From Actinomycetota bacterium (lineage in GTDB: Bacteria > Actinomycetota > Acidimicrobiia > Acidimicrobiales > SZUA-35): a stretch of DNA of 64,000 bases. Under the pieces are notes generated by a model. It was not told where the DNA came from. It worked only from the letters and a program-made list of their open reading frames with translations, and did not search any database. Made by a program: the position numbers and the translations under genes. Positions within the stretch are counted from its first letter, which is position 1. Every line of letters starts with the position of its first letter. Below, piece after piece: positions 28,661-63,749 of the stretch. The stretch spans positions 12,924-76,923 of the forward strand of contig JBCCFL010000019.1 of the NCBI GenBank assembly GCA_039029735.1, given 5' to 3'.

Positions 28661-30402
28661 GATTGCCCTCCCACGAGGCCAAGATCGATCGCCGACCGCA
28701 CGGCGGTGGCCGCAGTGTGTCCGAGCCCGCAGATCGACGCATCCTTCATGGCCTGATCCATCTCGGCCAGCAGCGCCACTGGGGTTGCGCCCGGCGCCGC
28801 GAGCAACTCGTGCTGGCGGATCGTGCCCACCCGACACGGCACGCATTGGCCGCACGACTCGTCGCGGAAGAACTCGGCGATCCTGGTGACGACGGGCTCC
28901 ATGTCGATCGTGTGGTCGAAGGCCATCACCACCCCCGAGCCGAGCGACACCCCGGCAGCCCGGGTGTCTTCGAACGTGAGTGGCAGATCGAGGGAGCTGG
29001 CGTCCACGAACGAACCGGCCGCCCCACCCAGCAGCACGGCCTGCAGGTCGCCAGCCACACCACCGGCGAGGTCGAGCAGCTCACGGAGCGTCATGCCGAA
29101 CGGCACCTCGTACAACCCGGGGCTGGCCACCCGGCCCGACACGCAGAACAGCTTCGTGCCAGTCGAGCCGTCGGTGCCCACCGAGGCGTAGGCCTCTCCC
29201 CCGTCGGTCACGATGTCGAGCACGTTCAGCAACGTCTCGGGGTTGTTGACCACGGTGGGGGCGTCGAACAGGCCGTTCGTGGTGGGGAACGGCGGCTTCT
29301 GCCGTGGCTCGCCCCTGAACCCTTCGAGGGAGTTGAACAGCGCCGTCTCCTCCCCACAGATGTAGGCGCCGGCACCACGGCGGATCTCGATATCGAACGA
29401 GAACGACGACCGGGCAATCCGCTCTCCCAGGAAGCCAGCCTCGCGAGCCTGGTCGATGGCACCCTGCAACCGGGCGGTCGCCAACGGATACTCGCCCCGG
29501 ATGTAGATCCAGCCCTTGGTCGCCCCGACGGCGAAGCCGGCGATCGTGGCGGCCTCGATCACGGCGAACGGATCGTTCTCCATCACGATGCGGTCTTTGA
29601 ACGTGCCGGGCTCCGACTCATCGGCGTTGACCACCACGTGTTTCGGGCCTGCCTCGTCGGCAACGGCCCGCCACTTGATCCCGGTAGGGAACGCGGCGCC
29701 GCCCCGGCCCATCAGCCGGGCCGCCTGCACCTCGGCAATCACCCCGTCGGCCCCGCTGGTGAACGCCTCGGCGAGGGCCTTGTAGCCGCCAGCACCGACG
29801 TAGCTCTGCAGGTCGGTGGGGTCGACCACACCAACGCGGCGAAGGAGCCGGAGGCGAGGGTCGGCCCGCTGGGGCACGAGCGGGGCCGGGGGCGTGTCGG
29901 CGGCGACATCGACCGGCACCCAGTCGGCCTTGGCTCGGCCCTGGACGAACTGGGCCACCGGCCGCTCGCACTGCCCGAGGCAGGGGCTCCGGTGGACGTG
30001 GCGGCCGGCCGCTTCGGCCTCGGCGATCACCTCGGCCGCACCGGCGATCTGGCAGGCCGCGTCGACACACACGTGCACCACGTCGTCGCTGTGGCCGGGG
30101 TCGTCCACCCGGAACAGGTCGTAGAAGGTGGCCACGCCGTAGGCCTCGGCCGGTGGCACGCCGAGCACCTCGGCGATGTGGTTGAGGCCACCCGGACTGA
30201 TCCATCCTGCCTCACGCTGCAGGGCGTGGAGGCACGGGAGCAGCAGGTGACGCCGCTCGTTGCGGCGGCTCACACCACCGAGCACGAGCCGCTCGTTGGC
30301 CACCACCACGGTGGGGCCGGCAGCCGAAGCCGCGACAACAGCGTCGATCGCCGCCGCCTCCGCCTCCGTCGCCTGGTCGGCGGAGATGTGCAGATCGGTC
30401 AC
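28657..30402 (-). CDS. NuoE-NuoF fusion-like diaphorase subunit (FdsG/FdsB-like; FMN, NAD, Fe-S)
   Basis: The N-terminal part is thioredoxin-like [2Fe-2S] (CVDAAC...SPCLGQCE). The NuoF-like part has GRGGAAFPTGIKW, NADESEPGTFKDR, and ESCGQCVPCR...CGLG. The GTG start overlaps the upstream stop (GTGA). Confidence 0.85.
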   Translation of the reverse strand: MTDLHISADQATEAEAAAIDAVVAASAAGPTVVVANERLVLGGVSRRNERRHLLLPCLHALQREAGWISPGGLNHIAEVLGVPPAEAYGVATFYDLFRVDDPGHSDDVVHVCVDAACQIAGAAEVIAEAEAAGRHVHRSPCLGQCERPVAQFVQGRAKADWVPVDVAADTPPAPLVPQRADPRLRLLRRVGVVDPTDLQSYVGAGGYKALAEAFTSGADGVIAEVQAARLMGRGGAAFPTGIKWRAVADEAGPKHVVVNADESEPGTFKDRIVMENDPFAVIEAATIAGFAVGATKGWIYIRGEYPLATARLQGAIDQAREAGFLGERIARSSFSFDIEIRRGAGAYICGEETALFNSLEGFRGEPRQKPPFPTTNGLFDAPTVVNNPETLLNVLDIVTDGGEAYASVGTDGSTGTKLFCVSGRVASPGLYEVPFGMTLRELLDLAGGVAGDLQAVLLGGAAGSFVDASSLDLPLTFEDTRAAGVSLGSGVVMAFDHTIDMEPVVTRIAEFFRDESCGQCVPCRVGTIRQHELLAAPGATPVALLAEMDQAMKDASICGLGHTAATAVRSAIDLGLVGGQS

Positions 30403-32402
30403 GTGACAGCTGCCCCTTCCAGCTCATCGGTGCTGGTGTGCTGCGCGGCTGGGTCGAGCTTCTCCACCCGGATGGCGGCCGCCTTGAACTCGGCCGTGCC
30501 GGACCGCTTGTCCCAGGCGTCGTTGGTCAACACGTTGGCATCCACCAGTTCGGGAAAGTGGAAGGTGGTGAAGGTCAAGCCCCGAGGCAGGTCGGGCTGG
30601 ATCCGTACCGCCATCTCCACCGAACCCCGCGGCGAGCTGACGAGCACCCGCTCTCCGTCACCGATGCCGAGCGCCTGGGCGTCGTCGGGATTGACGTCGA
30701 GCGCCTCGCCGTAACGAATGGGCGACGAGAGGGACCCCGACTGCACGCCCGTGTTGTAGGAGTCGAGCGATCGGCCCGTGGTGAGGCGCAGGGGGAAGTC
30801 TGGGGTGAGCGCCTCCTTCGGGCCCTCGTGCTCCACGACGCTGAACGGGGCGGGGTCACGGCCCTCACGATCGGCGGCCCAGAGCCAGCCGTGGAGGAAT
30901 GGGCTGCCGGGATGATCCTCGGACGGGCAGGGCCACTGGAGCCCACCCTCGGACTCCAGCCGATCCCAGGTCATCCCCTGATGCAGCGGCGAGAGCGAGC
31001 GCAGCTCGTCCCACAGCTCGTGCGGGGTCGGAGTGCCCCAGCCGGCGCCCATGCGGTTGGCGAGGTCGGCCAGGATGTCGATGTCGTGGCGGGCCTCGCC
31101 CGGCGGCGGCACGGCGGCCCGTACCCGCTGCACCCGGCGCTCGCTGGAGGTCACGGTGCCGTCGGACTCCGCCCACGCCACCGAGGCGGGAAGCACCACG
31201 TCGGCCAGTTCGGCGGTGCGGGTCAGGAAGATGTCCTGCACAACGAGGAGGTCGAGGCCCTCCAGCAGATCGCGGGCGTGGGCCACGTCGGCCTCGGAGT
31301 CGGCCGGGTTCTCACCGATGCAGTAGACGGCCCGCAGCTCGCCGGCCTTCATTGCCTCGAACATGAGTGTGAGGTGGAGCCCGGGCTCGGGGTTGAGCTC
31401 CACCCCCCAGGCGGCCTCGAACTTGGCCCGGGCGGCGGGATCGACCACGTCCTGGAAGCCGGGGAACTTGTTGGGCAGCGCGCCCATGTCGCCCCCGCCC
31501 TGCACGTTGTTCTGCCCCCGCAGGGGGACGAGCCCCGAACCCCAGCGGCCGACGTGGCCGGTGAGCAACGCGAGGTTGCACAGCGACAACACGTTGTCGA
31601 CGGCGTTGTGGTGCTCGGTGATGCCCAGCGTCCAGAGGATCTGCGCCTTGTCGGCGGTGGCGTAGGCCTCGGCCAACTCGGCGATGGCGGCCGCCGGCAC
31701 GCCGGTGATCTCCTCAGCCACCTCGAGCGTGTAGGGCTCGACAGCATCGACGTAGGCGTCGAAGCCCTGGGTGGCGTGGGCGATGAACTCTGCGTTGTGC
31801 CAGCCGTTGGCGATGATGTGGCGACCAACGGCGTTGGCGAGGGCGATGTCGGTGCCCACGTTCAGGCCGAGCCAGGCGTCGGCGAACTTCGCCGACGAGG
31901 TGCGGCGCGGGTCGACGGCGAACATCTGAGCGCCGTTGTCCAACCCCTTCATGAGGTGATGGAAGAAGATCGGGTGGGCCTCTCGGGCGTTGGAGCCCCA
32001 GAGCACGATCACATCAGTTTCGTGGATCTCCTGGTAGGAGCAGGTGCCGCCGCCGGCACCGAACACTGTCGCCAGACCGACGACGGAGGGAGCGTGTCAA
32101 GTTCGGTTGCAGGAGTCGATGTTGTTCGACCCCAGCACGGTGCGAGCAAACTTCTGGGCGGCGAAGTTCATCTCGTTCGTCGCCTTCGAGCAGCTGAACA
32201 TGCCCACTGCCCGGGGGCCGTGCTCGTCGACGGTGGCTCGCAGGCCAGTGGCCACCCGGTCGAGGGCCTCGTCCCACGTGGCGGGCCTGAGCTCGCCGTT
32301 GTCGCGCACGAGGGGCTGGGTGAGGCGCGGACGCTGTCGAGCCAGCCGACCCCGGCGACGGCCCGAGCGGGAGGAGCCGTTGGTGTGGGTGGGAGCAGTC
32401 AT
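30399..32402 (-). CDS. Formate dehydrogenase catalytic (molybdopterin bis-PGD) subunit, read through an in-frame UGA (selenocysteine candidate); lacks the usual N-terminal Fe-S module
   Basis: ORFs 32097..32477(-) and 30399..32066(-) share a frame and are separated only by TGA 32099-32097. The joined sequence reads ...SNNIDSCNRT-U-HAPSVVGLATVFGAGGGTCSYQEIHETDVIVLWGSN.... I place the start at ATG 32402 (MTAPTHTNG...RLTQPLVRDNGELRPATWDEALDRV). Confidence 0.8.
32068..32084 (-). other. Candidate SECIS apical hairpin
   Basis: The mRNA reads UGA CAC GCU CCC UCC GUCGUC-GGUCU-GGCGAC. This gives a 6-bp stem (one G-U pair) and a GGUCU loop starting 13 nt after the UGA. It occupies the same V/A-G-L codon context as the GGUC loop of the E. 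coli fdhF SECIS. Confidence 0.5.
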
Positions 32403-32470
32403 GGGTGCCGAACCTCGTCTGGACGTGGGTAGTGATCTGGGGCCGCAGGATTGTCCCACGAAGCGGAACA

Positions 32471-32486
32471 GTTCCACTCTGCGGAT
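32471..32486 (-). promoter_or_regulatory. Weaker copy (12/16) of the C1-cluster 16-mer, 69 nt upstream of the FDH operon start
   Basis: The minus strand reads ATCCGCAGAGTGGAAC, against TTCTGCATCGTGGAAC at 56348 and 61113. It overlaps the palindrome GGAAC-A-GTTCC. Confidence 0.3.
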
Positions 32487-32595
32487 CCCCTAATGGTAGC
32501 CGCCCCCACGCAGCGGAGCCCGGCCGAACCAGGCCATACACCCGAGTCGCAAAACCGGGAGATGCGCACCATTGAGAGGGATAGCGTGAGTTGCG

Positions 32596-34390: not shown

Positions 34391-35137
34391 ATGTCGGGTG
34401 TGCAATCGATCGAACGGGCTTTCGCGTTGCTGCGAGCGCTCGCCGTCGGCTCTGCCGGTGTCACCGACCTGGCCGAGCGGGCTGATCTCCCGAAGAGCAC
34501 TGTGTCGCGCCTGCTCGCTGCACTCGAGCAGGAAGGGGCGGTCGAACAGGAGGAGATCGGGGGCGAGTACCGCCTCGGGAGTGCGCTCGCCGATCTTGCC
34601 GGTGCTGCCGGCCCCGGGTACAACCTCGTTACCGCCGCCCGCCCTCACCTGATCGAACTCACCGCCCAGACCGGCGAGTCGAGTGGCCTGGCCGTGCTCG
34701 AAGACGGGATGGTGTACTACCTCGATCACGTCGACGCCGAGGAGAACGTGATGGTGCGGAGCTGGACCGGGGAGCAGATCCCGTTCCACGTCGTACCCTC
34801 CGGCTTGGCGCTCCTGGCCGCCGCCCGCCCGTCGGTGATCGAGGACCATCTGCGCCAGCCGCTCGAACCGAGCACCGAGCGGACAGCGATCGACCCGATC
34901 GAGATCCGCCGGAGGATCGAGCACGTGTCGCGCGCCGGTTACCTCTGGTTCCATCGGGAGTACGACGACGAGATCTCCTCGGTGGCGGCTCCGGTGTGGG
35001 GGCCGGGGCGACGCGAGGTTCTCGCGGCAGTACACGTGCACGGTCCGGCCTACCGATTTCCTGGAGACGGCTCGGCCGACGAGATCGGCGCCCTGGTGAG
35101 CGATGCGGCATCCCGTCTCGCTGATCAGTTGCACTGA
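34391..35137 (+). CDS. IclR family transcriptional regulator
   Basis: ORF 34157..35137 was trimmed to ATG 34391 (MSGVQSIERAFALLRALAVGSAGVTDLAERADLPKSTVSRLLAALE), followed by an IclR effector domain. Confidence 0.85.
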   Translation: MSGVQSIERAFALLRALAVGSAGVTDLAERADLPKSTVSRLLAALEQEGAVEQEEIGGEYRLGSALADLAGAAGPGYNLVTAARPHLIELTAQTGESSGLAVLEDGMVYYLDHVDAEENVMVRSWTGEQIPFHVVPSGLALLAAARPSVIEDHLRQPLEPSTERTAIDPIEIRRRIEHVSRAGYLWFHREYDDEISSVAAPVWGPGRREVLAAVHVHGPAYRFPGDGSADEIGALVSDAASRLADQLH

Positions 35138-44128: not shown

Positions 44129-44143
44129 ATCGATGATTCATCG
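44129..44143. promoter_or_regulatory. Perfect palindrome TCGATGA-T-TCATCGA 22 nt upstream of the Lrp/AsnC gene
   Basis: Seen in ...ctactgtaTCGATGATTCATCGAcaacagtgaaagaacaacgcATG. Its right half (GATTCATCGACAACAGT) also resembles the C1-cluster motif GATTCTGCATCGTGGAAC when gapped. Confidence 0.35.
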
Positions 44144-44164
44144 ACAACAGTGAAAGAACAACGC

Positions 44165-48626: not shown

Positions 48627-48668
48627 GGCCGGGCGCGCCCATCGAGGAGTTGTCGAGCCCTCGACGCG

Positions 48669-49106: not shown

Positions 49107-49161
49107 ACAAGCTCTATTGACGTATATGTAGAACGATTCACATCATCAAAACTGACGCTCC

Positions 49162-51129: not shown

Positions 51130-51133
51130 CCGC

Positions 51134-51747: not shown

Positions 51748-51780
51748 GCTAGAAGAACGGAGGGGCGCCGTCCGGTCGCG

Positions 51781-52758
51781 TCAGGCGCCGCGGCGGCGTC
51801 GGATCTCGGCTGAGATCGCCGGAACCACCTTGTGGAGATCGGCGATCACGGCGTAGTCGGCCTTCGACACCATGTTGGCTTCCGGGTCGGTGTTGATGGC
51901 CAGGATGCGCTTGGAGGCCATGGCCCCCACCCAGTGCTGGATGGCACCCGAGATGCCGGTGGCGATGTAGATCTCAGGCGCGATCCTCGTGCCGGTCTGA
52001 CCCACCTGATCGCTGTGGGGCCGCCAGCCGTTGTTGGTGACGGCTCGGGAGCACCCCACCACACCGCCGAGCAGCTCGGCGAGCTCCTCCAGGGGAGCGA
52101 ATGCGTCGGCCGAACCGACGCCACGACCGCCCGACACCACCACCGGTGAGGTCGACAGGGTGATGCCCTGACTGAGCACGTCGCGGTCGGCGATCATCGT
52201 GACGGTGACCGACTCGTCCAGGTCGGGCTCGAAGGTCTCCACGGTGGCATCACCGGCGGCGTCGGCCGGTTCGGCGGCCACCGCGTGATGGGCGTAGGTG
52301 ACGAGCTTGCGGTCGGCGGTGAGCGTCACATCTTCGAGCAGCGAGCCGCCCCACTGCACCCGGGTGACCGACCACGGGTCGTCGTCGGTGTCGATCTCGG
52401 TGCAGTTGGCCACGAACGGGGCGTCGATGCGGGCCGCCATCTGGGCCATCACCTCGTTGCCACGGTCGGTGCCGACCGACATCACCACATCGGCATCGGC
52501 GTCGTCAGCCAGCTGGGCCAGGGCCTCGGCCCAGGCGTCGGGCCCGTAGTCGGTGAGCAGGTCGTGGCTCACCACGTGCACGGTGTCGGCACCGAAGCGG
52601 CCGGCTTCGTCCACCACATCATCGGCCCCGGCACCGATGGCGACGGCGTCGATCGACTCGCCGAGCGAGTCACCCAGGATCCGAGCCGCAGTCAGCGCCT
52701 CACGCGCCGCCTCAGTGATCTCGCCGCAATCATGTTCGAGGAGAACCAGCATCGTCAT
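51781..52758 (-). CDS. etfA: Electron transfer flavoprotein alpha subunit
   Basis: Contains VVSGGRGVGS...GCSRAVTNNGW...QVGQTGTRIAPEIYIATGISGAIQH. The start overlaps the etfB stop by 4 nt. Confidence 0.9.
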   Translation of the reverse strand: MTMLVLLEHDCGEITEAAREALTAARILGDSLGESIDAVAIGAGADDVVDEAGRFGADTVHVVSHDLLTDYGPDAWAEALAQLADDADADVVMSVGTDRGNEVMAQMAARIDAPFVANCTEIDTDDDPWSVTRVQWGGSLLEDVTLTADRKLVTYAHHAVAAEPADAAGDATVETFEPDLDESVTVTMIADRDVLSQGITLSTSPVVVSGGRGVGSADAFAPLEELAELLGGVVGCSRAVTNNGWRPHSDQVGQTGTRIAPEIYIATGISGAIQHWVGAMASKRILAINTDPEANMVSKADYAVIADLHKVVPAISAEIRRRRGA

Positions 52759-53546
52759 TGGGTACCCCCGAGCACGCCGATCTCTTCGAGCAGGTCGACG
52801 ATGGCAGCGGCAGCGGTCTCGTCGGTACCGAGGATCCGGGTTTCCTTCACGGTCTCGGCCGGGCGCTTGAGCTGCACCATGGCCTGACCACCGGCACCAG
52901 CTGCGATGTCACGCACCTGCATGTCGGCCTTCTTCGACGCCAACCGGCCCTTCATCGTGGGGTAGCGCGGGAGGTTGATGCCCTCTTTCACGCCGAGCAC
53001 CGCAGGGCGGGGCAGCCGGTAGACCTCGAACCCACCATCGATGGCCCGACGGGCGACGATCTGGTCACCGTCGAGTTCAGTGCCCTTGATGCCGTTCACG
53101 ATCGGTCGGCCGAGGGCCCGGGCCACGCGAACGCCGACCTGGAACCCACCCGAGTCGGCCGACTCGTTGCCGAACATGATCAGATCGAACGGCCCACCGT
53201 CGGCCTCGATGGCCTGGATCGCATCAGCAAGGGCCGAGGCTGTGCGCTGGGGATCCCACGCTGCGAGCCCGTCCTCGATGGGCACAAGCACGAGATCGGT
53301 GGCGCCGACACTGGCGGCGTAGCGGAGCTGCTCCTCGGCCTCGGGCGGGCCGAGGGTGAGCACGGTCACCGCGCCGCCGTTGGTCTCCACGAGCTGCACC
53401 GCCTCTTCGACGGCGCACTCCTCGTGGGGGCTGGTGGTGAACCCGAGATGCGCCGTCTCCACGGCCTGCCCATCATCGGTCACGTTGATCCGCGCCCCGG
53501 GCGCCGGCACCCGTTTCACACAGCAGAGGACCCTGAGTTCGCTCAT
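52755..53546 (-). CDS. etfB: Electron transfer flavoprotein beta subunit
   Basis: ORF 52755..53633(-) was trimmed to ATG 53546 (MSELRVLCCVKRVPAPGARI...NPHEECAVEEAV...). Confidence 0.9.
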   Translation of the reverse strand: MSELRVLCCVKRVPAPGARINVTDDGQAVETAHLGFTTSPHEECAVEEAVQLVETNGGAVTVLTLGPPEAEEQLRYAASVGATDLVLVPIEDGLAAWDPQRTASALADAIQAIEADGGPFDLIMFGNESADSGGFQVGVRVARALGRPIVNGIKGTELDGDQIVARRAIDGGFEVYRLPRPAVLGVKEGINLPRYPTMKGRLASKKADMQVRDIAAGAGGQAMVQLKRPAETVKETRILGTDETAAAAIVDLLEEIGVLGGTQ

Positions 53547-53653
53547 CGATCTCCTCGGGGGACGTTCGCCAGGGTGGCCCCCGGCCAGCCTGCGAACTCC
53601 AGGTGGCGCTCGCGCCACACCTTCACGCAGCACAGAATGCGCAGTTCGCTCAC
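53543..53653 (-). CDS. 36-codon upstream ORF whose first 11 codons duplicate the EtfB N-terminus; it bridges the upstream stop and the etfB start
   Basis: The GTG at 53653 overlaps the TGA of the upstream dehydrogenase gene (GTGA). It encodes VSELRILCCVKVWRERHLEFAGWPGATLANVPRGDR*. Its TGA overlaps the etfB ATG (ATGA). The true EtfB begins MSELRVLCCVKRVP. Confidence 0.4.
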   Translation of the reverse strand: MSELRILCCVKVWRERHLEFAGWPGATLANVPRGDR

Positions 53654-56196
53654 GACTTCATCCGGGCGTCATCGGGATCGAACAACGGCTGTGACCCCAC
53701 CCGGGCAACGGTGACAGGGAACATCTCGTTCATGTACATCACCTGCAGCTTCGTGCCCTCCACCGCCTGCGCCGGCGGGAGGTACGACATGAGCAGGTAC
53801 TGGCCCAACGACGGAGCCATGCCGGCCGTGGTCACCCGGCTCACGCGGCCCTTGCGGTCCACGATGCGGTCACCGTCGAGGGTGAGGATCGGCTCGTTGC
53901 CACCGGTCATGTACCGCGTCCGCCCTTGGGCGTCGGTGTGGTCGTCGACGGTGAGCGTGCACAGCGTGGCCGCCGGAGTCTCCTCGTCGCGGGCAGCCAG
54001 GTATGCCTCCTTGCCCATGAAGTCGGCCTTCTTCACCTTCGGACGGGCGAGCCCGGCCTCCACCGGCGTGTACTCGCTCTCGAGCTCAGCACCCATCAGG
54101 CGGTACCCCTTCTCGATGCGGCCCGAGGTGCCGTACACCCCGATGCCGACGGGAACCACGCCGTGGTTCTGACCCTCGTTCCAGAGGGCGTCCCACACGG
54201 CCGGGGCCTCGTCCCAGGGGATGTAGATCTCCCAGCCGGTGTCGCCAACATAGGAAATCCGGAACGCCCGGCACGCAACGCCCGCGATCGTCAGTTCAGC
54301 GGTGGAGCCGTAGGGGAACGCGTCCTGGCTCATGTCCGCCCCGGACACCGCGGCGACGAGCGCCGGGGCGTTCGGACCCCACACGCCGATCGTCGAGATG
54401 TCCGTCGTCCGGTTGGCGAAGGTCACCGAGCCGTCGGCCGGCAGGTAGCGGTTGATCCAGAACTCATCGCGCCCACCATCGAAGGCGCCAGTGACGACGC
54501 GGAAGTGATCGTCGGCGAGGCGGAGGACCGTGAGGTCGGAGTGGAAGCCGCCGCCCTGGGTGAGGAACGGGGTGTAGATGGAGCGGCCGACGGCCACGTC
54601 GCACTGGTTGACGGCCAGGTACTGCACGTAGTCGAGCGCGCCCGGACCGGTGAGATCGAAGATCTGGAACGCCGACAGATCCACCATGCCAACGTTCTCA
54701 CGCATGGCGAGGTGCTCGGCCTCCTGGATGGGAGACCACCAGCGATCGTCCCACTCGGCGTCACGCTGCGGCGCGATGCCGTAGGTCTCGACGAGCGCGG
54801 CGTTGTGCTCGTACCACTGCGGGCGCTCCCAGCCCCGGGCGTCGTAGAACTCGGCGCCCAAGGCCTCCTGGCGGGAGTAGAAGGGCGTCTTGTGGTGGCC
54901 TCGCTCGCTGGCCCACTGCTCGCGGGGGTGGACGATGCCGTAGGTCTTGTTGAAGTGTTCCGAGCAGCGGGCGTCGATGTGGTCCCAGGTGCGCTCGTGG
55001 GCGTAGAGCCGGGCGATGTCAGAGCCCTCGGGGTCGCAGATGTGGGGATAGCCGTAGGTCATCCACTCGGCAACGAGCTGGGCGATACCGGGCCCCTCCT
55101 TCACCCACACCGCGGCCGCCGACCAGAGGTCGCGCACCTCGGTCTCACCAAGCACCGGCATGGCGTCGGGGGTGAGCGAGAGCAGGCCATTGATGGCGTA
55201 CTTGATCTCGGCATCGTCGAGGATGTCGCCCATCAACTCCAGCGCCTGCTCCAGCTGGAGATCGAAGTCGTCCGGGGTGAAGGGCATCTCGGTAGGCGAG
55301 AGCGCGGCCTCCTCGTTGGAGGGGATCTCCTCCGGGCGGTGCAGGATCGGACGGTGGGCGTAGGAGCCGACCTCCATCGACCCAGCGCTCTGCCGCTCGT
55401 AACAGAAGGTGTCCATGTCACGGACGATCGGGTACCCGATCTCGTTGTTGGTCTCCTGGAGGATGTCGATCGGGCCGACGTCGGCCATCTGGTGCACGGC
55501 CGGCGTGAGCGGGATCGTCGCTCCTGCCATCTCGGCCAGCTTCGGGCTCCACACGCCACAGGCGATGGCCACGGTGTCGCAGGTGATGCGGCCCTTGTCG
55601 GTGACCACTGCGGTCACCTTCGAAAAGCCGTTGCCGTCGTCGGTGGTCTCGATGTCGAGCACCTCGGTGTTGGCGAACACCTTGAGCACACCCTTGTCCT
55701 GGGCCTTCTTGCGCATGACGGTGCCGGTCTCCAGCGAGTCGACCACCGACACACTCGGCGTGTAGAAGCCGCCGAGGAGGATGTCGGCGTTGATGAAGGG
55801 CACCTTCTCCTTGATCTGAGCGGGGGTGAGCAGCTCGGCCTCCACGCCCCAGGCCTTGGCCGAGGTCATGCGGCGACGAAGTTCCTCCATCCGCTCCTCG
55901 GTCCGGGCCACCTCGATGCCACCACAGGTGGTGTTCATGCCCAGCTCTTCGTACTGGCGCTGGCTCTCAGCGGTGAGGAACGCCATCTCCTTGTTGTGGT
56001 CGACGGGGAAGATGAAGTTCGAGGCGTGACCGGTGGAGCCGCCCGGGTTGGGCAGCGGGCCTTTGTCGAGCAGGACCATGTCGTCCCAGCCGAGGTCGGC
56101 CAGGTGCCCGACCAGGCAGTTTCCGACGATTCCGGCACCGATGACGATGCACTTCGCGTGCTCAGGCACCGCAGGGGTGGAAGCCGTGTCACTCAT
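53650..56196 (-). CDS. Dimethylglycine oxidase / sarcosine dehydrogenase-family enzyme (FAD + GcvT domains, 848 aa)
   Basis: Contains KCIVIGAGIVGNCLVGHLA...GGSTGHASNF (covalent-flavin His context). The C-terminal GcvT-like part has GMVDLSAFQIFDLTGPGA...ISYVGDTGWEIY. Confidence 0.85.
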   Translation of the reverse strand: MSDTASTPAVPEHAKCIVIGAGIVGNCLVGHLADLGWDDMVLLDKGPLPNPGGSTGHASNFIFPVDHNKEMAFLTAESQRQYEELGMNTTCGGIEVARTEERMEELRRRMTSAKAWGVEAELLTPAQIKEKVPFINADILLGGFYTPSVSVVDSLETGTVMRKKAQDKGVLKVFANTEVLDIETTDDGNGFSKVTAVVTDKGRITCDTVAIACGVWSPKLAEMAGATIPLTPAVHQMADVGPIDILQETNNEIGYPIVRDMDTFCYERQSAGSMEVGSYAHRPILHRPEEIPSNEEAALSPTEMPFTPDDFDLQLEQALELMGDILDDAEIKYAINGLLSLTPDAMPVLGETEVRDLWSAAAVWVKEGPGIAQLVAEWMTYGYPHICDPEGSDIARLYAHERTWDHIDARCSEHFNKTYGIVHPREQWASERGHHKTPFYSRQEALGAEFYDARGWERPQWYEHNAALVETYGIAPQRDAEWDDRWWSPIQEAEHLAMRENVGMVDLSAFQIFDLTGPGALDYVQYLAVNQCDVAVGRSIYTPFLTQGGGFHSDLTVLRLADDHFRVVTGAFDGGRDEFWINRYLPADGSVTFANRTTDISTIGVWGPNAPALVAAVSGADMSQDAFPYGSTAELTIAGVACRAFRISYVGDTGWEIYIPWDEAPAVWDALWNEGQNHGVVPVGIGVYGTSGRIEKGYRLMGAELESEYTPVEAGLARPKVKKADFMGKEAYLAARDEETPAATLCTLTVDDHTDAQGRTRYMTGGNEPILTLDGDRIVDRKGRVSRVTTAGMAPSLGQYLLMSYLPPAQAVEGTKLQVMYMNEMFPVTVARVGSQPLFDPDDARMKS

Positions 56197-56326
56197 GTGG
56201 AGGTTCCTCGTGATGGCGTGGATTCGGATCGATGTGGGCGGAGCCCGATCGGCACCCTAGAACGGGGCCGGCTCGTCCACGACCATCACCAGGTGCGCTG
56301 CGTCATGAGGTGCAGTTGCCTGCCCT

Positions 56327-56363
56327 CTGTTCTGCATTGCGGAATGATTCTGCATCGTGGAAC
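56327..56363 (+). promoter_or_regulatory. Conserved 37-nt motif (copy 1) in the divergent promoter region between the dehydrogenase-etfBA operon and the lipoprotein-coxL operon
   Basis: The sequence is CTGTTCTGCATTGCGGAATGATTCTGCATCGTGGAAC. It matches copy 2 at 28/37 positions, including an identical 16-mer. It contains two RTTCTGYAT units 18 nt apart. An inverted ATTCTGCA unit lies at 56382-56389. Confidence 0.55.
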
Positions 56364-56487
56364 GACGGTCTCTGAGCGTATTGCAGAATCGCCACGACTG
56401 TCGAGTAGTAGGTGTCAACGCGCCACCGCGTCCGCCGCTGGCGCCGAAGGGCTCACGGCGGCATCCGGCGATCCGATACGAAGCGTC

Positions 56488-57060
56488 ATGGCCTGGGCCC
56501 GCCACGCTCTCCTCCGCCGGCTCGTCGGCGCACTTGCCATCGTCGCGCTGGTCGCCATCAGCGGGTGCGGAGGCGACGGCGAGGAGACCACCTCGGCCAC
56601 GTTCTGGGTGTTCCGGGACGACGGCATCCGCCCCCCGTCGCGGGGCACCGAGCCGGCACCGGACGCACCCCCCGACAGCGTGCTCCGCTTTGCCACCACA
56701 ACCACGTTCGGCACACTGCCCCCGCTGCCGATGAGCGAGTTCGACGGCGCGTACTGCGCGGCCCTCACCGAGATGTGGGAGCGAACGTTCCTCGTGTTCA
56801 TCGGCCGCAACACCGACGGCACCTGGCCCACGTTCTCCGAGGACCTGAACGGCTTGGCCGACGTGGTGGACACAGCCGCCGATCTGGCACCGCTGCCCCA
56901 TCGCCCGCATCTCACCGGCAGCGCCGACGACTACCGCCGCATTGCGGCCAAGCCGTGGGTCGAGGCCCAGTACGAACCGCTGTTCAACGGCGGAGCCAAC
57001 CTGGAGTACGCCACCGACGCCTACTTCAACCAGGTGTGCCTCGGCCAGCCACCAGGCTGA
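56488..57060 (+). CDS. Lipoprotein of unknown function (190 aa)
   Basis: This is the real 3' part of the artefactual 1044-aa ORF 53926..57060. ATG 56488 gives MAWARHALLRRLVGALAIVALVAISGCGGDG, which contains a lipobox. Confidence 0.6.
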   Translation: MAWARHALLRRLVGALAIVALVAISGCGGDGEETTSATFWVFRDDGIRPPSRGTEPAPDAPPDSVLRFATTTTFGTLPPLPMSEFDGAYCAALTEMWERTFLVFIGRNTDGTWPTFSEDLNGLADVVDTAADLAPLPHRPHLTGSADDYRRIAAKPWVEAQYEPLFNGGANLEYATDAYFNQVCLGQPPG

Positions 57061-57091
57061 CCCTCGCCGTTGAGCCCACTAGGTTGGCCCC

Positions 57092-59515
57092 GTGGTGGCG
57101 CACACCCCCTCGAACGCAGCCGACGCGCCCTTCGTCGGTCGACCACTCCCCGCCGTCGACCGAGCGCTCCTCGACGGCACGGCCCGATTCGCCGCCGACA
57201 CCGTTCCGGCTGCTGGTGCATTGGAGCTGGCCCTCGTACGCACGGCGCAGGCCCACGCCGACATTCACCACATCGATACGGCGGAGGCGCAACGACGTCC
57301 GGGAGTGGAGGCGGTGATGACCGGTGCCCAGTTGGCCGAGCGCTGCCGCCCTCTCGGCAACATCCTCACGGCGGACGCACCGTTCTACCCGCTGGCGGTC
57401 GATCGCATCCGGTACTGGGGCGAGCCGGTCGCAGCCGTGGTCGCCAATACCCGAGCGCTCGCCGAGGACGGGGCCGACGCCGTGACGGTGGACGCAGCAC
57501 CGCTCCCGGTTCTCGTCGACCCGGTCGAGGCCGCCGAGCCCGGAGCCCCGACCCTCCACACGGCGCTGGCCACGAACGTGGTCCACGATCGGTCGTTCAC
57601 CTACGGGCAACCCGATGATGCGTTCGCAACGGCGGCCCACGTGGTTCGCTACGAGGCGACCTTCCCCCGCAGCTCAGCGTTTCCGCTCGAACCTTTCGTG
57701 GCCTGCGCCGAGTACGACCCCGACCTCGACCGCACCACGGTGTGGGCCAACTACGGCGGCCCGCTGGCGCTTCACGCCGTGGTGGCCGGTGCGCTCGGTG
57801 TTGGCCTCGACCGGCTGCGGCTGGTCGTACCCGACCGTATCGGCGGGAACTTCGGGCTGAAGCAGGCCCTGTATCCCGCCCTCGTGCTGGTTGCCGTGCT
57901 CGCTCGCACGACCGGCCGACCGGTCCGCTGGGTGGAGGACCGCAACGAGCACCTCGTTGCGTCCTCGGCTGGAAGCCAGCGGGTCACATCGATGGACGGG
58001 GCATTCAGCTCCGATGGCCGACTGCTCGCCCTCCGAATCGACCAGCTGGAGAACACCGGCGCCTACGTCCGCACGCCGGAACCAGCCGGCCTGTATCGGA
58101 TGCACGGAACGCTGAACGGCCCCTACGACGTGGACCACGTCGCCGTCCGCAACCGCGTGGTACTCACCAACCAGGTGCCGAGCGGGCTGAACCGCGGGTT
58201 CGGAGGGCCGCCGTTCTTCCATGCGCTGGAGTCGATGCTCGACACCGCAGCGCGCGAGCTTGGGCTGGACCGAGCCGACCTGCGGCGGCGCAACCTCGTC
58301 ACGACCTTCCCGTACTCGTGCCCCTCGGGTTCGACCCTCGATCACAGCGACTACCGAGCCGTGCTGGATCGGGCTCTCGACCTGGCTGGATACGTCAGCG
58401 CAACCGACGCGGCGACCGCGGCTCGAACGGAGGGTCGCCTCGTCGGTGTGGGCCTCGGCTGCTCGGTGGAGAGTTCGGGCAACAACCTCGGGTACATGAA
58501 CCTGGCCGGTGATCCAAGCCTCGGGGCGGCCCGCTCCCCGCGGTCGGGGGCCGGCGCCACCGCCACGGTCGCGATCGATCCCTTCGGTGCGGTGTCGCTC
58601 CAGCTCGACAGCCCCGACTGCGGCCAGGGGTACCGAACCGTGGCGGCCCAGGTGGTGGCTGACGAGTTGGGGCTCGACCCGAGCCGCATCACGGTCCGCA
58701 CCGCCCTGGACACTGCGACCGACGGCTGGACCCTCACGTCGGGCAACTACGCCAACCGGTTCTCGACGGCCGTGGCGTCGGCCGCCGCCCGGGCGGCCCG
58801 TCGCGCCGGAGCCAAGCTCCGGACCCTGGCCGGTGCTGAGCTCGAGGTCGAGGCCGATCAGCTGGAGCTGCGCGACGGGCAGATCATCGACCCGGTCTCG
58901 GGCCGATCGCTTCCACTCGGGCGTCTTGCCGGTCAGCTCCATTGGGATCTGGCGAACCGGGCCGAAGGTGTCGGTGGGCCGATCCGGGAAACGGCGGTGT
59001 ACGCTCCATCCGAACTCGGATCGCCAGACGAACTCGGCCGGATCTCCACATCGTTCACATTCAGCGTCCAGTGCGATCTCGCGATCGTCGAGATCGACCC
59101 TGCCACCGGTGAGATCGACGTCGACCGCTACGTCACGGTGCATGATGCGGGCACCATCTTGAATCCCGGCTTGTTCGAGGGTCAGGTACGAGGCGGGTTC
59201 GCCCACGGATTCGGAGCTGCGATGCGCGAAGCGCTGATCTACCGGCCCGATGGGGTACCGAACGCACGGGATCTGCGCGCCTATGGCCCCGTGCTCGCCA
59301 CCGATCTCCCTCCGCTCATCATCGACCACCTCGTGAGCCCGTCCCCGAACACCGAGCTGGGGGCCAAGGGTCTTGGCGACGGCTGCGCCATCCTCGCTCC
59401 CACCGTGATGGCGTCAGCCATCGCCGATGCGCTGGAGCTGCGGCGGCCGCCCGTCCCTCCTTTCACTCCGGCTCGGGTGTGGCGACTGGCTGCCCACACA
59501 AGCGGAGAGCGATGA
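57092..59515 (+). CDS. Xanthine dehydrogenase/CoxL-family molybdopterin-binding large subunit
   Basis: 807 aa with a GTG start. Contains RIGGNFGLKQ (the GGGFGxK-type motif) and GLNRGFGGPPFFHALE. The typical C-terminus is ELGAKGLGDGCAI. I see neither the form-I CODH loop VAYRCSFR nor AYRGAGR. Confidence 0.8.
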   Translation: MVAHTPSNAADAPFVGRPLPAVDRALLDGTARFAADTVPAAGALELALVRTAQAHADIHHIDTAEAQRRPGVEAVMTGAQLAERCRPLGNILTADAPFYPLAVDRIRYWGEPVAAVVANTRALAEDGADAVTVDAAPLPVLVDPVEAAEPGAPTLHTALATNVVHDRSFTYGQPDDAFATAAHVVRYEATFPRSSAFPLEPFVACAEYDPDLDRTTVWANYGGPLALHAVVAGALGVGLDRLRLVVPDRIGGNFGLKQALYPALVLVAVLARTTGRPVRWVEDRNEHLVASSAGSQRVTSMDGAFSSDGRLLALRIDQLENTGAYVRTPEPAGLYRMHGTLNGPYDVDHVAVRNRVVLTNQVPSGLNRGFGGPPFFHALESMLDTAARELGLDRADLRRRNLVTTFPYSCPSGSTLDHSDYRAVLDRALDLAGYVSATDAATAARTEGRLVGVGLGCSVESSGNNLGYMNLAGDPSLGAARSPRSGAGATATVAIDPFGAVSLQLDSPDCGQGYRTVAAQVVADELGLDPSRITVRTALDTATDGWTLTSGNYANRFSTAVASAAARAARRAGAKLRTLAGAELEVEADQLELRDGQIIDPVSGRSLPLGRLAGQLHWDLANRAEGVGGPIRETAVYAPSELGSPDELGRISTSFTFSVQCDLAIVEIDPATGEIDVDRYVTVHDAGTILNPGLFEGQVRGGFAHGFGAAMREALIYRPDGVPNARDLRAYGPVLATDLPPLIIDHLVSPSPNTELGAKGLGDGCAILAPTVMASAIADALELRRPPVPPFTPARVWRLAAHTSGER

Positions 59516-61044
59516 AGCCGGCGCCCTTCGGGTACGTCCGACCCTCCTCGATCGAGGAGGTGACGACCATCCTGGCCGAGCGCGGCGCCACCGCATCAGT
59601 GATCGCCGGCGGTCAGTCGCTGATGCCGCTGCTGGCCCAGCGCCAGCGACGCCCTGCGATCGTGGTGGACCTGGCCGCAATCAACGAGCTTCGCCGGGCC
59701 GTGATCACCCCCGAGGCCGTCGAACTGGGCGCCCTGGTCGGCCAGGCCCTCGGGCCAGAGCTGACCGAGGCCCTCCCGCTCCTGGCTCTGGCGCTCCCCA
59801 ACGTCGGCCACGCCCAGACGAGGAACCGAGGCACGATCGCCGGCTCGGTCGCCCACGGCGATCCGCTGGCCGAGATTCCCCTGGCACTGCTGGTGGGCGG
59901 AGGGGAGGTGGAACTCGCCTCGGCGCGCGGGCGGCGCCGCGTCCCGATCGACGCCTTCCTCGACCGGGCGTTCGCTCCGGCACGCATGGACGACGAGTTG
60001 GTCGTGGCAACCCACTGGGCCCGGCCGAGCCCCGGCGCCGGACATGCGTTTCTCGAGATCACGTCGGGCACTACCGTGGCGGCAGCAGCCGCGGTCGTGA
60101 CGGTCGACAACGGGCAGGTGACCTCGGCTCGGGTCGGGGTGATCGGTCCTGGTGAGCGTCCTGTGTGCATGGGGGTGGGCACCGCGCCGGCGGTCGATCC
60201 GACCAGCCGAGCTCGGGGTGAGGCGGTGGAACTGGCCGCAGCACGGCAACATGAAGAGGTCCTCGCGTTGAGCCACCAGCTGGCGACGCGCCTCGTCGAT
60301 GGCGTGGTGTTCGTCGATGATGCGGCGTCGGACCCCGAGCACCGGCGAGCAGTGGCAATCGAGCTGGCAATCCGGGCACTCGTGGCCGCCGTCGCCGACA
60401 GTGCGGATCGCGGCGCTGAGGCCAATGCAGCCCGCAACGCACCTGATCCGCCACTTGCTCCGGGCGAGGCGCTCGGCGCCGATGGACACCGGCCGCGCAG
60501 CCCAGCATTCGACGAAGCGGTGGAGATCGATCCCGCCCAGCGTGTTGCCGTGACCCTCGACGTCGACGGCCGAGCGCACGCCACGGTGATCGAACCGCGA
60601 ACGAGTCTGACTGACGCCCTTCGTGAGGTGGGCGTGACCGGAGTGAAGGTCGGCTGCGAACAGGGCGTGTGTGGCTCGTGCACCGTGCTGCTGGACGGGA
60701 CGAGTCAGCGCTCGTGCCTCGTGCTGGCCGTCCAGGTCGACGGCGTCGAGATCACCACTGCGGCGGGGCTGACGGCACCAATCGAGGAGTTGCGCACGGC
60801 GTTCGTCGACCACTTCGCGGTGCAATGCGGCTTCTGCGCGTCCGGCGTGTTGGTCACCGCCGCAGCCGAGCTCGCCGAGCGCCAACGCGCCGGAACGCTC
60901 GACAGCCTCGACCGGCCGACGATCTCCCGCTTGTTGTCCGGCAACGTCTGTCGCTGCACGGGCTACGCCTCGATGGTGACCGCCATCGAACAGGCGGCCG
61001 AGCGCCTGGGCGCCGCATCCGCCCACCCGACCTCGGACCCCTGA
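59512..61044 (+). CDS. Fused CoxM-like FAD-binding subunit and CoxS-like [2Fe-2S] subunit (510 aa)
   Basis: ATG 59512 is ATGA-coupled to the large-subunit stop. The N-terminus is MKPAPFGYVRPSSIEEVTTILAERGATASVIAGGQSLMPLL. The C-terminus is ...GCEQGVCGSCTVLLDG...QCGFCASG...CRCTGY. Confidence 0.75.
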   Translation: MKPAPFGYVRPSSIEEVTTILAERGATASVIAGGQSLMPLLAQRQRRPAIVVDLAAINELRRAVITPEAVELGALVGQALGPELTEALPLLALALPNVGHAQTRNRGTIAGSVAHGDPLAEIPLALLVGGGEVELASARGRRRVPIDAFLDRAFAPARMDDELVVATHWARPSPGAGHAFLEITSGTTVAAAAAVVTVDNGQVTSARVGVIGPGERPVCMGVGTAPAVDPTSRARGEAVELAAARQHEEVLALSHQLATRLVDGVVFVDDAASDPEHRRAVAIELAIRALVAAVADSADRGAEANAARNAPDPPLAPGEALGADGHRPRSPAFDEAVEIDPAQRVAVTLDVDGRAHATVIEPRTSLTDALREVGVTGVKVGCEQGVCGSCTVLLDGTSQRSCLVLAVQVDGVEITTAAGLTAPIEELRTAFVDHFAVQCGFCASGVLVTAAAELAERQRAGTLDSLDRPTISRLLSGNVCRCTGYASMVTAIEQAAERLGAASAHPTSDP

Positions 61045-61091
61045 CCCCTCGTGGTTCGAGATCTGCCCCGTGCCTCTGTACCCGGGCGAAC

Positions 61092-61128
61092 CTGTTCTGT
61101 ATGATGGGCCAGTTCTGCATCGTGGAAC
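61092..61128 (+). promoter_or_regulatory. Conserved 37-nt motif (copy 2), 52 nt upstream of fhs
   Basis: The sequence is CTGTTCTGTATGATGGGCCAGTTCTGCATCGTGGAAC. It has the same orientation and the same 18-nt unit spacing as copy 1. Confidence 0.55.
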
Positions 61129-61179
61129 AGTCTTGATCAGCCAGGGACCTCTGATCCCCGAACCCGGAAGCAGCCGCGA

Positions 61180-62877
61180 ATGCCTTTCCCCAGCGACCTC
61201 GAGATCGCCACCGGTGCCAACCTGCAATCGATCCCCGAGATTGCCGACCGCGCCGGTATCCCTGCTGAGCACCTCGAGCCCTACGGTTCGGGCGCGGCGA
61301 AGATCTCGCTCGACGCCGTCGAGGCCATGTCCGACCGCCCTGACGCCCGCTACGTGGTGGTCACGGCGATCACCCCCACCCCTCTCGGCGAGGGCAAGAC
61401 CACCACCACCGTCGGCCTGGGTCAGGGCTTCAGCCACATCGGCAAGAACGCCACGATCGCAATCCGCCAGCCCTCGATGGGCCCGACCTTCGGCATCAAG
61501 GGTGGCGCCGCCGGTGGCGGCTACAGCCAGGTGGTGCCGATGGAGCTGCTCAACCTCCATCTCACCGGCGACATGCACGCCGTGACCGCGGCCCACAACC
61601 TCTGCTCGGCGATGCTCGACGCCCACCTCTACCACGGCAATACCGCCGGGTTCGACATGCACAACATCACATGGCGCCGCGTGGTCGACGTGAACGACCG
61701 GGCGCTGCGCAACATCGTGGTGGGCATGGGTGGCCGCCTCGACGGCATCCCCCGTGAGACCGGGTTCGACATCACCGCCGCCTCCGAGGTGATGGCCGCC
61801 CTGGCCCTGTGCACCTCGCTCCAGGATCTCCGGGCCCGGATGGGGCGCATCGTGCTCGGCTACACCAAGAGCGGAGACCCGATCACCGCCGAGGAGATCG
61901 GCGCCGCCGGGGCCATGACCGTGATCCTGCGCGAGGCCATCAAGCCCAACCTGATGCAAACGCTGGAGAACACACCGGCCCTGGTCCACACCGGCCCCTT
62001 CGGCAACATCGCCACGGGCAACTCGTCGATCGTGGCCGACATGGTGGGCATCAAGTCGGGCGACTTCCTGATCACCGAGGCCGGCTTCGGGGCCGACATG
62101 GGCGCCGAGCGCTTCTTCAACATCAAGTGCCGCAACTCGGGCCTCACCCCGGATGCCGCCGTGGTGGTCGCCACCGTGCGCGGCCTCAAGGCGCACTCCG
62201 GCAACCACAAGATCGTGGCCGGCAAGCCGCTGCCCGATGCCCTCCTCGCCCAGAACCCCGACGAGGTGCACCAGGGCGGCGACAACCTGCGCAAGCAGCT
62301 CGAGAACATGAAGATCCACGGCGTGACCCCCGTGGTGGCGATCAACATCTTCCCCGGCGACCACGAGGGCGACATCGCCGCCATCGGTGAGATCGCCGAG
62401 GAGTACGGGGCCCGCTGGGCCCGGGCCACCCACTTCGCCGACGGGGGCAAGGGGGCAGCCGAGCTCGCAACGGCAGTGGCCGAGGCCGCCGAGGAGCCGA
62501 GCAACTTCGCCGTGCTCTACCCCGACGACGCCCCGCTCACCACCAAGATCGAGACCGTGGCGGAGAAGGTCTACGGCGCCGACGGCGTTGACTACTCCCC
62601 GACGGCCACCAAGCAACTCGCCACCTACACCGCAGCCGGATTCGACAACCTTCCGGTGTGCATCGCCAAGACCCACCTGTCGATCTCGTCCGACGCCAAA
62701 CTCAAGGGCGCCCCAACGGGCTGGCGTCTGCCCGTGCGCGAGGTGCGCGCCTCGGTTGGTGCCGGCTTCGTCTACCCGATCTGCGGCGACATGCGCACGA
62801 TGCCCGGCCTCGGCACCGCCCCGGCTGCGCTCGGTATCGACATCGACGCCAACGGCGACATCGTGGGGCTCAGCTGA
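61180..62877 (+). CDS. fhs: Formate--tetrahydrofolate ligase
   Basis: Contains VVVTAITPTPLGEGKTTTTVGL...IRQPSMGPTFGIKGGAAGGGYSQV...NLHLTGDMHA. Confidence 0.95.
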   Translation: MPFPSDLEIATGANLQSIPEIADRAGIPAEHLEPYGSGAAKISLDAVEAMSDRPDARYVVVTAITPTPLGEGKTTTTVGLGQGFSHIGKNATIAIRQPSMGPTFGIKGGAAGGGYSQVVPMELLNLHLTGDMHAVTAAHNLCSAMLDAHLYHGNTAGFDMHNITWRRVVDVNDRALRNIVVGMGGRLDGIPRETGFDITAASEVMAALALCTSLQDLRARMGRIVLGYTKSGDPITAEEIGAAGAMTVILREAIKPNLMQTLENTPALVHTGPFGNIATGNSSIVADMVGIKSGDFLITEAGFGADMGAERFFNIKCRNSGLTPDAAVVVATVRGLKAHSGNHKIVAGKPLPDALLAQNPDEVHQGGDNLRKQLENMKIHGVTPVVAINIFPGDHEGDIAAIGEIAEEYGARWARATHFADGGKGAAELATAVAEAAEEPSNFAVLYPDDAPLTTKIETVAEKVYGADGVDYSPTATKQLATYTAAGFDNLPVCIAKTHLSISSDAKLKGAPTGWRLPVREVRASVGAGFVYPICGDMRTMPGLGTAPAALGIDIDANGDIVGLS

Positions 62878-63749
62878 TGGCGAGCCGGTTCACCGCCCGG
62901 GTCAAGGAGACTCCCCAGAGCGAGCAGTACCGCCTCGACCTGATTGCCGGGCTCACCCACGAGCTCATCCCGCTCAAGTCGGTGGACGCTGCCATCGAGG
63001 CGCTGCCACCGTCGTCGAAGGTGTCGGTCACCTGCTCACCGGTGAAGGGCATCGACACCACGATTGAGCTGACCGACCGGATACGGGCCGCCGGGCACAT
63101 GGCGATTCCCCACATCTCGGCCCGCATGGTGGAAGACGCCGACCACGTGGCTCGGATCGCGGCCTGGCTACGTACCGAAGACGTGGGCACGATGTTCCTC
63201 GTCGGCGGCGACGCCGATCCACCCGGCGCCTATCCCGATGCGATCTCGTTCCTGCGAGATCTGCTGGACGCCGACCCCGGGCTGCGCACCATCGGCGTGA
63301 CCGCCTACCCAGACAGCCATCCGCTCATCGACACCGACGTGTTGCACGAGGCGCTCCACGCCAAGCAGGCCCTGCTCGCGGAGGCGGGCGTCGCCGGCTA
63401 CGCCAGTACCCAGATGTGCTTCGACTCGGGCAAGATCGTGAGCTGGCTCGAACGCGAACGTGCCGCTGGGCTCACGCTGCCGATCCACCTGGGCGTCGCC
63501 GGTGTGGTCGATCGATCGAAGCTGATGACGATGGGCGTGCGCCTCGGCATCGGTTCGTCGCTGCGATATCTGAAGAAGAACCGCAATGCCATCGGCCGAC
63601 TCCTCACGTCGGCGAGCTTCGACCCGAATAAGCTTCTTGTACCACTGAGCCCTCACCTCGAGCCGTTGGCCGTCGAGGGGCTGCACTGTTTCACGTTCAA
63701 TCAGGTCGACGCCACGGTGTCGTGGCAGAAGCGAGTTTTGGAGAGCTGA
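62877..63749 (+). CDS. metF: Methylenetetrahydrofolate reductase family protein
   Basis: ORF 62658..63749 was trimmed to ATG 62877, which overlaps the fhs stop (TGATG). Contains IGVTAYPDSHP, STQMCFD, and AGLTLPIHLGVAG. Confidence 0.65.
   Translation: MASRFTARVKETPQSEQYRLDLIAGLTHELIPLKSVDAAIEALPPSSKVSVTCSPVKGIDTTIELTDRIRAAGHMAIPHISARMVEDADHVARIAAWLRTEDVGTMFLVGGDADPPGAYPDAISFLRDLLDADPGLRTIGVTAYPDSHPLIDTDVLHEALHAKQALLAEAGVAGYASTQMCFDSGKIVSWLERERAAGLTLPIHLGVAGVVDRSKLMTMGVRLGIGSSLRYLKKNRNAIGRLLTSASFDPNKLLVPLSPHLEPLAVEGLHCFTFNQVDATVSWQKRVLES

Follow-up and report, generated by a model that had tools for sequence, protein, structure and literature searches.

The window considered here is a stretch of 64,000 nucleotides (contig C19:12924-76923) from a draft Acidimicrobiales genome (6,047,524 bp, 68% G+C), and it carries two copies of a conserved 35-bp element in the intergenic DNA of a one-carbon gene cluster, one lying between the operon of a dimethylglycine/sarcosine-dehydrogenase-like enzyme (DMGDH) and a cox-type operon, and the other just upstream of fhs. 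The element is probably (we put this at about 0.8) a tandem operator of the IclR family, and the putative protein that binds it is an IclR-family transcription factor encoded at 34391-35134. A first-pass annotation of the same DNA took the two copies for a regulatory motif shared within the one-carbon cluster, and a cis-regulatory element is borne out, in that they are confined to intergenic DNA and conserved at orthologous promoters. The annotation's views of how the element is built and which kind of protein reads it have had to change.

Architecture of the shared element

The two stretches of 37 nt first noted, at 56327-56363 and 61092-61128, are exact to the letter, are identical at 28/37 positions and have their 3' 16-mer, TTCTGCATCGTGGAAC, in common. 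Their resemblance is far above chance; the 16-mer has two occurrences in the 6,047,524-bp genome and no further one even with one mismatch, and a search for two TTCTGYAW units set 10 nt apart gives seven matches genome-wide when one mismatch per unit is tolerated, the only clean ones being the two copies. Local alignment of both intergenic regions finds no likeness outside the 37-39 bp of the motif, and so the copies are not the edge of a paralogous duplication that reaches into the genes.

The unit itself had been read as a 9-nt direct repeat, RTTCTGYAT, and this does not hold. Each copy is made of two tandem 17-bp pseudo-palindromes, GTTCyGyATnryGGAAy (in outline GTTC-N9-GAAC), with centres 18 bp apart, giving four half-sites whose direction alternates. 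The consensus over orthologous sites is GTTCTGTATGATGGAAT-C-GTTCTGCATnGyGGAAC, variants among the relatives' sites such as GTTCCGCATCGTGGAAC expose a GTTCC...GGAAC dyad, and one locus (L032) has its two units in opposite orientation. Every orthologous site, like all four of this genome, keeps the period of 18 nt.

A comparative study of 1,340 IclR-family regulators (Suvorova & Gelfand 2021, PMC8222616) describes as its main motif subgroup GTT-11-AAC, or GTTYCRYW3RYGRAAC, and predicts tandem palindromes 18-22 nt apart in more than half of its IclR ortholog groups, an arrangement there ascribed to tetramer binding. Measured against this independent consensus the eight boxes of the four sites found in this genome (below) match at 13-15/17 positions, the two boxes of site 1 at 15/17 and 14/17. 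A 15/17 match occurs at 44 of the roughly 12 million positions on both strands, ten of the 44 being inside the four operators (five boxes, read on both strands), and no position reaches 16/17. The agreement with this group-1 type extends to the 17-bp palindrome, the presence of two boxes, a centre spacing of 18 bp within the published 18-22, the alternating half-sites, the linkage of the sites to a protein of about 250 aa with HTH_IclR and IclR_C domains, and, where the centre of a site is at -68 or -69, a position within the customary zone of -20 to -80. The sites here differ in having T and not C at position 5 and often ATC or ATG as the central W3, in that sites 1 and 3 lie farther from start codons, and in the distance of the regulator gene. 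Box sequence and tandem spacing alike make the operator of an AraC/GbdR-type protein or of a response regulator, which had been suggested at first, a poor fit. The main text of PMC8222616 does not describe the Acidimicrobiia host clade or the present regulon.

Sites in this genome and in its relatives

A box matrix was made from other genomes' sites only, this genome being left out, and was summed over two boxes 18 nt apart. Run over the 6.05 Mb, it gives as its four top tandem scores the sites numbered 1 to 4 in Table 1, all of them intergenic and all within 42 kb of contig C19. The best tandem match off that contig scores 12.3 (contig C76), and the maximum in a reversed-genome control is 11.9. 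The first-pass annotation had proposed such a scan as a check, and the motif turns out to be neither scattered nor placed inside genes. A second, sequence-only model (R1, from 16 sites) was run over whole genomes and its E values are also in Table 1. Copy 2 does lie upstream of fhs as stated earlier, with 51 nt from the end of the copy to the fhs ATG (61180) and the centre of the site 69 nt before that codon. Site 3 is centred at about -73 from a 145-aa gene and -109 from the corrinoid gene on its other side. The weaker site 4 has its edge 50 nt and its centre 68 nt upstream of the fdhA ATG (32402); on its other side proS (32596), which leads the divergent proS-iclR, begins 126 nt from that centre.

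Conservation at orthologous promoters, another check proposed, is found, for example before fhs. The closest public genomes are metagenome-assembled Acidimicrobiales and Ilumatobacteraceae. The 35-mer stands upstream of fhs in eleven relatives (G003, G004, G005, G006, G024, G035, G036, L023, L032, L046 and L058). In nine of those eleven, including five of the seven with G numbers, the site is in the divergent region between DMGDH and fhs; in G024 a GntR/FCD gene intervenes between the two, and in G004 only fhs was identified. G010 has the site upstream of a metF-like gene that takes the place of fhs. A second site, before the corrinoid operon, is present in this genome (G000) and in G003, G005, G006, G010, G024, G035 and G036, and model sites at E <= 0.01 also occur in G008, G023 and G058. 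Since the intergenic regions cannot be aligned outside the 35-mer, it is the motif itself that selection acts on.

Site 1 has a further feature 18 nt after its end, namely an inverted half-site, ATTCTGCAA, which contains the inverted unit TGCAGAAT that had been noted at 56382-56389 and is indeed there. RTTCTGCAW occurs 58 times in the genome, so that about 0.0006 would be expected per 60-bp flank, and with that expectation the extra half-site is unlikely to be a chance occurrence. Scored as a full 17-mer it reaches 0.5 only, and the flank that carries it occurs in this genome alone. It could be an auxiliary, or third, box of the PcaU/PobR kind. The operators of PcaU, PobR and HmgR have a GTNCG-N5-6-CGNAC palindrome and an external half-site, the latter needed for PcaU binding (PMC8222616), and the combination of a palindrome with an extra half-site is what site 1 has in common with them. 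Those proteins are activators of aromatic catabolism encoded divergently beside their targets, in contrast to the four half-sites plus one and the methyl-group oxidation pathway here.

The candidate regulator

The protein encoded at 34391-35134 has 3r4k as its closest solved structure and scores below all NCBIfam equivalog cut-offs. Clustering of the open reading frames (ORFs) of twelve motif-bearing loci leaves one common regulator-like family, which is the IclR type, the other common families being enzymes. Across 61 related genomes, and taking at least 50% identity as the definition of an IclR ortholog, motif and IclR gene are found together in 11, the IclR gene alone in 3, the motif alone in 2 and neither in 45 (Fisher's exact test, p = 6e-8, phylogeny being ignored). 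In both motif-only genomes the contig with the motif also encodes a more distant IclR homolog, and one genome tallied as IclR-only (G004) has a weaker site (E = 0.057) before fhs, 3.7 kb from its iclR. In eight genomes (G004, G005, G010, G023, G024, G035, G036 and G058) iclR ortholog and motif share a contig and are 2.7-12.5 kb apart. The first statement that no such regulator is encoded beside either copy holds for the immediate neighbours only, and the window does contain this motif-linked IclR gene. Boxes stand some 10-35 nt before the iclR start in L030, L032, L064 and L052, and a single box 32 nt before iclR in G035, and on this ground autoregulation, a frequent trait of the family, is predicted in relatives.

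The converse case is also informative. Of 80 DMGDH loci, 48 yielded neither motif nor IclR gene, and the majority of the 48 have a divergent GntR/FCD gene instead. Because the DMGDH loci without IclR are also without the motif, the motif tracks the IclR gene and not the target genes. Most motif-less Ilumatobacteraceae lineages carry GntR/FCD divergently beside DMGDH (L041, L062, L070 and about 50 others; for instance at L019:9262-9870), and in G024 and L060 the IclR and GntR/FCD regulators are both present. It thus seems that sister lineages place one and the same catabolic gene, DMGDH, next to regulators of different families.

Another arrangement occurs in AT-rich marine Acidimicrobiia of the MedAcidi type, where TTCCC-N7-GGGAA palindromes (L025:8980-9120 and L026:8960-9110) are upstream of an IclR homolog of 37-42% identity, and this homolog directly adjoins DMGDH. 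These palindromes may be a diverged form of the operator described here.

A number of observations count against assigning the sites to this protein. The co-occurrence statistic is inflated by common ancestry. Here 21 kb separate the IclR gene from site 1, and the proS-iclR spacer is without a box (best box score -0.9). Nine loci have a distant IclR homolog (37-52% identity) and no strong matrix match. The centre of site 1 is 150 nt from the DMGDH and 142 nt from the lipoprotein start codon, outside the -20 to -80 zone, and the 18 bp between box centres is the lowest value of the published 18-22. A counterpart of site 4 was not found in the fdhA-proS-iclR regions of G005 and G036, and site 4 was seen in this genome only.

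With regard to the origin of site 4, an AT-rich stretch in G036 (L135:7944-7978, with ...TGTGGAACTGTTTCGCTTTTTGG...), about 265 nt upstream of iclR, has the box-junction core GTGGAAC-T-GTTyCGCTT in common with site 4. This shared core hints that site 4 may be descended from an iclR-associated site.

Alternative explanations

Other proteins could in principle use such a site. A MerR-DUF3291 gene lies past the window at L022:5762-6742, some 5 kb downstream of fhs, G024 and L060 have a GntR/FCD gene directly beside the motif, and in this genome motif and IclR gene are not neighbours, all of which would suit an operator for one of these two factors or for an unlinked one. Yet this genome has no GntR/FCD ortholog (best 31% identity, on other contigs), the gene is missing at most motif-bearing loci while present at dozens of motif-less ones, and MerR-DUF3291 is not among the gene families common to motif-bearing loci. 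A Pfam search of the ORFs at 38854-51780 and downstream of fhs finds no regulator adjoining the sites, MerR-DUF3291 being the only one seen. MerR sites are single dyads within a promoter spacer, and the box fits the IclR consensus, unlike a MerR single dyad. Overall a different factor is improbable, if the best of the alternatives. The direct-repeat reading, with an AraC/GbdR-type activator or a response regulator as the binder, has in its favour that the left half-sites read naively are direct repeats 18 nt apart, and that the AraC-family GbdR governs betaine catabolism in Pseudomonas, as referenced in PMC12478193. It is nevertheless very improbable. Each unit is palindromic (GTTC-N9-GAAC), the units of L032 are mutually inverted, and neither the AraC nor a response-regulator family is common to the motif-bearing loci. 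Regulators of the OmpR/PhoB type use repeats of 10-11 bp, which the 18-bp period does not fit, and an operator of the AraC/GbdR or response-regulator kind would be expected to show asymmetric direct repeats with a period of 10-11 or 21 bp.

A promoter element has been proposed as well, with GGAAC as the -35 of an extracytoplasmic function (ECF) type sigma factor, and one might equally take TATGAT as a bare -10. GGAAC does resemble ECF -35 cores, and box 1 of the fhs-type sites conserves TATGAT or TATAAT. GGAAC is, however, the right half-site of both boxes, where it mirrors GTTC. An ECF promoter would have a CGT-type -10 at a constant 16-17 nt, and among orthologous sites the interval from GGAAC to a CGT-like -10 varies from 5 to 17 nt, no -10-like element stands at a constant distance and the downstream sequence is not conserved. 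Site 1 is without TATGAT and still has every half-site, and a promoter alone would not account for 35 conserved bp with dyad symmetry, nor for boxes before iclR genes. Strict sigma-70 promoter and terminator scans of three intergenic regions give no match, a result that is uninformative for a high-GC actinobacterium. It is hard to give a plain promoter element much credence, and as little attaches to the view that the repeats are a non-functional scar, att-like or a duplication junction, left by the insertion of a cassette. For the scar speak the copies exactly flanking a 4.7-kb cassette that is without a close ortholog in 13 relatives, and the lower GC3 (G+C at third codon positions) of that cassette compared with its neighbours. 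Against it, relatives whose DMGDH-fhs region is uninterrupted carry the motif there once, and it also occurs at further promoters. Where the copies differ, it is mostly at degenerate consensus positions, both scores staying high, and duplication accounts for copy number and not for sequence. A riboswitch or leader RNA (such as a ZTP riboswitch before fhs) was also considered and set aside, there being no Rfam match in 50000-64000 at E <= 1 and the conservation ending at the edges of the 35-mer.

How the proposed IclR-type operator might work

With the IclR-family tandem operator retained as the preferred explanation, the IclR protein would bind each 35-mer as two dimers, probably as a tetramer, and would repress until a metabolite of the pathway releases it, betaine, dimethylglycine, sarcosine and formate being the obvious candidates for the effector. 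That the action is repression and not activation is somewhat favoured on grounds of geometry. Box 1 of all fhs-type sites contains a TAnnnT hexamer (TATGAT, TATAAT or TATGGT; 61100-61105 in the window, alignment A1 columns 7-12) and box 2 of these sites never does, having CATCGT or CAATGC, and the box 1 hexamer suggests an overlap of operator and promoter. If it is a -10 element, transcription would begin in box 2, some 68 nt ahead of the fhs ATG, and the bound tetramer, lying over the putative -10, would occlude it.

TtgV and E. coli IclR bind as a tetramer to a long operator that overlaps the promoter, and a small-molecule effector releases them; the mechanism proposed here is the same. Both (2xrn/2xro and 1td5/2o99) belong to the same protein family, are distant (E 5e-15 to 2e-10) and have different operator sequences. 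The mechanism is textbook, and the element would be an IclR tandem operator of the standard sort. The novelty lies in the ortholog group, in the host clade and in what the regulon contains, with its aerobic corrinoid/MttB route, selenocysteine formate dehydrogenase and putatively captured cox-type enzyme. The literature search found no paper that combines an IclR regulator with betaine, MttB or corrinoid genes. In the regulated-COG table of the PMC8222616 supplement, BetT, FolD, PurU, SoxD/G, MetF, FTHFS, ETF and ProV/X stand in adjacent rows, and these rows hint that an IclR-controlled C1/sarcosine regulog was predicted for some group.

Target genes and the proposed pathway

The genes next to the four sites are given in Table 1. 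Formate dehydrogenase is a probable target, and its catalytic gene has an in-frame TGA at 32097-32099 (minus strand) followed by HAPSVVG, the selenocysteine context of FdhF-type enzymes. The metF-like gene is a weak match to methylene-tetrahydrofolate reductase. The lipoprotein has 190 aa from the ATG at 56488, with a signal peptide and the lipobox AISGC, and matches nothing in Pfam or NCBIfam; this frame replaces the 301-aa ORF at 56412-57317 of the mechanical ORF list, which was rejected as the lipoprotein gene. No operator was found before the second MttB/DMGDH pair (region about 44100-44700).

Table 1. Operator sites, the candidate regulator gene and associated operons (positions in the window unless a contig or locus is given)
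Feature	Position	Strand	Details
Site 1	56329..56363	+	boxes 56329-56345 GTTCTGCATTGCGGAAT and 56347-56363 ATTCTGCATCGTGGAAC; score 52.9 (genome best); R1 E = 5.7e-7; between DMGDH-etfBA (minus strand) and lipoprotein-coxL-coxMS (plus strand)
Extra inverted half-site	56381..56389	-	putative third or auxiliary box, after site 1
Site 2	61094..61128	+	boxes 61094-61110 GTTCTGTATGATGGGCC and 61112-61128 GTTCTGCATCGTGGAAC; score 45.3; R1 E = 4.6e-7
Site 3	C19:87323-87357 (L022:12325-12359)		about 10.4 kb past the window end; score 26.1; between 145-aa gene and corrinoid methyltransferase operon
Site 4 (weaker)	32453..32487	-	GATCCGCAGAGTGGAAC-T-GTTCCGCTTCGTGGGAC; score 23.9; R1 E = 3.6e-5
IclR-family transcription factor	34391..35134	+	248 aa; Pfam HTH_IclR 5.8e-15, IclR_C 1.4e-28; proposed binder
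DMGDH operon	51781..56196	-	dimethylglycine/sarcosine-dehydrogenase-like FAD+GcvT enzyme 53650-56196, etfB 52755-53633, etfA 51781-52758
cox-type operon	56488..61044	+	lipoprotein 56488-57060, CoxL-type molybdenum hydroxylase 57092-59515, fused CoxM-CoxS to 61044
fhs operon	61180..63749	+	fhs 61180-62877, metF-like gene to 63749; past the window: MFS transporter and pyridoxal-phosphate (PLP) dependent enzyme
Formate dehydrogenase (probable target)	28657..32402	-	catalytic gene 30399-32402 (selenocysteine), NuoF-like diaphorase 28657-30423
Corrinoid methyltransferase operon	L022:12451-18793 (= C19:87450-93792)		10.5-17 kb past the window end; own site 3

The corrinoid operon encodes a B12-binding corrinoid protein, DUF1638, a pterin-binding methyltransferase, a RACo-type activase and a non-pyrrolysine MttB homolog, and the host of this complete corrinoid methyltransferase operon is apparently aerobic. 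Taken together the four operators are proposed to define one regulon, for the oxidation of methyl groups from a betaine-like quaternary amine. MttB, the corrinoid protein and the pterin methyltransferase would pass a methyl group from the quaternary amine to tetrahydrofolate (THF), and the metF-like gene, the DMGDH-like enzyme with its ETF, the formate-THF ligase and the formate dehydrogenase would be further members of the route. The GbdR/SouR system for glycine betaine, dimethylglycine and sarcosine catabolism in Pseudomonas is alike in that one factor coordinates successive demethylation steps. It differs in its regulator family (AraC), in site architecture and in the first demethylase, which is a Rieske oxygenase there and a corrinoid MttB-type methyltransferase here.

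A cassette flanked by two putative operators

In relatives a single operator serves both the DMGDH and the fhs operons. Here a cassette of lipoprotein, CoxL and CoxM-CoxS genes (56364-61091, 4.7 kb) is found between DMGDH and fhs, and the 37-bp imperfect direct repeats that flank it are the two operator copies. No close coxL ortholog was found in 13 relatives (best 35% identity), and GC3 is 0.82 for coxL and coxMS as against 0.91-0.93 for DMGDH and fhs. The copy on the fhs side has kept TATGAT in box 1 together with 7 further nt of the ancestral left flank, and its right half-site is degraded (GGGCC). The copy on the DMGDH side has kept all four half-sites and has lost TATGAT (CATTGC). The cassette looks like a recent insertion into the divergent promoter region, and we infer that insertion came with a duplication of the operator, through which the cassette joined the regulon.

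The fullest version of this account is that an undescribed Acidimicrobiales IclR group would run a complete aerobic methyl-oxidation regulon, from corrinoid/MttB through a DMGDH-type enzyme, methylene-THF and formate to CO2 via the selenocysteine formate dehydrogenase, and that a foreign cox cassette would have been captured when it inserted into the operator region and the operator was duplicated. It is put forward tentatively, at a little short of even odds.

Implications

For those who read sequence there is a general caution in that "direct repeats 18 nt apart" can be two palindromic IclR boxes. The sister lineages with GntR/FCD beside DMGDH, in which the motif is absent, point to turnover of the regulator. 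If the account of the cassette is true, it would be a clean natural case of regulon growth through operator duplication, and would tie a cox-type enzyme functionally to betaine/C1 catabolism; the predicted co-regulation of that enzyme is already a functional lead in the same direction. The regulon also marks genes without an assigned role as possibly acting together, namely those for the lipoprotein, the cox-type molybdoenzyme, the 145-aa protein and DUF1638. Four operators and one candidate regulator amount to a testable regulon for methylated-amine and C1 oxidation in an uncultured group.

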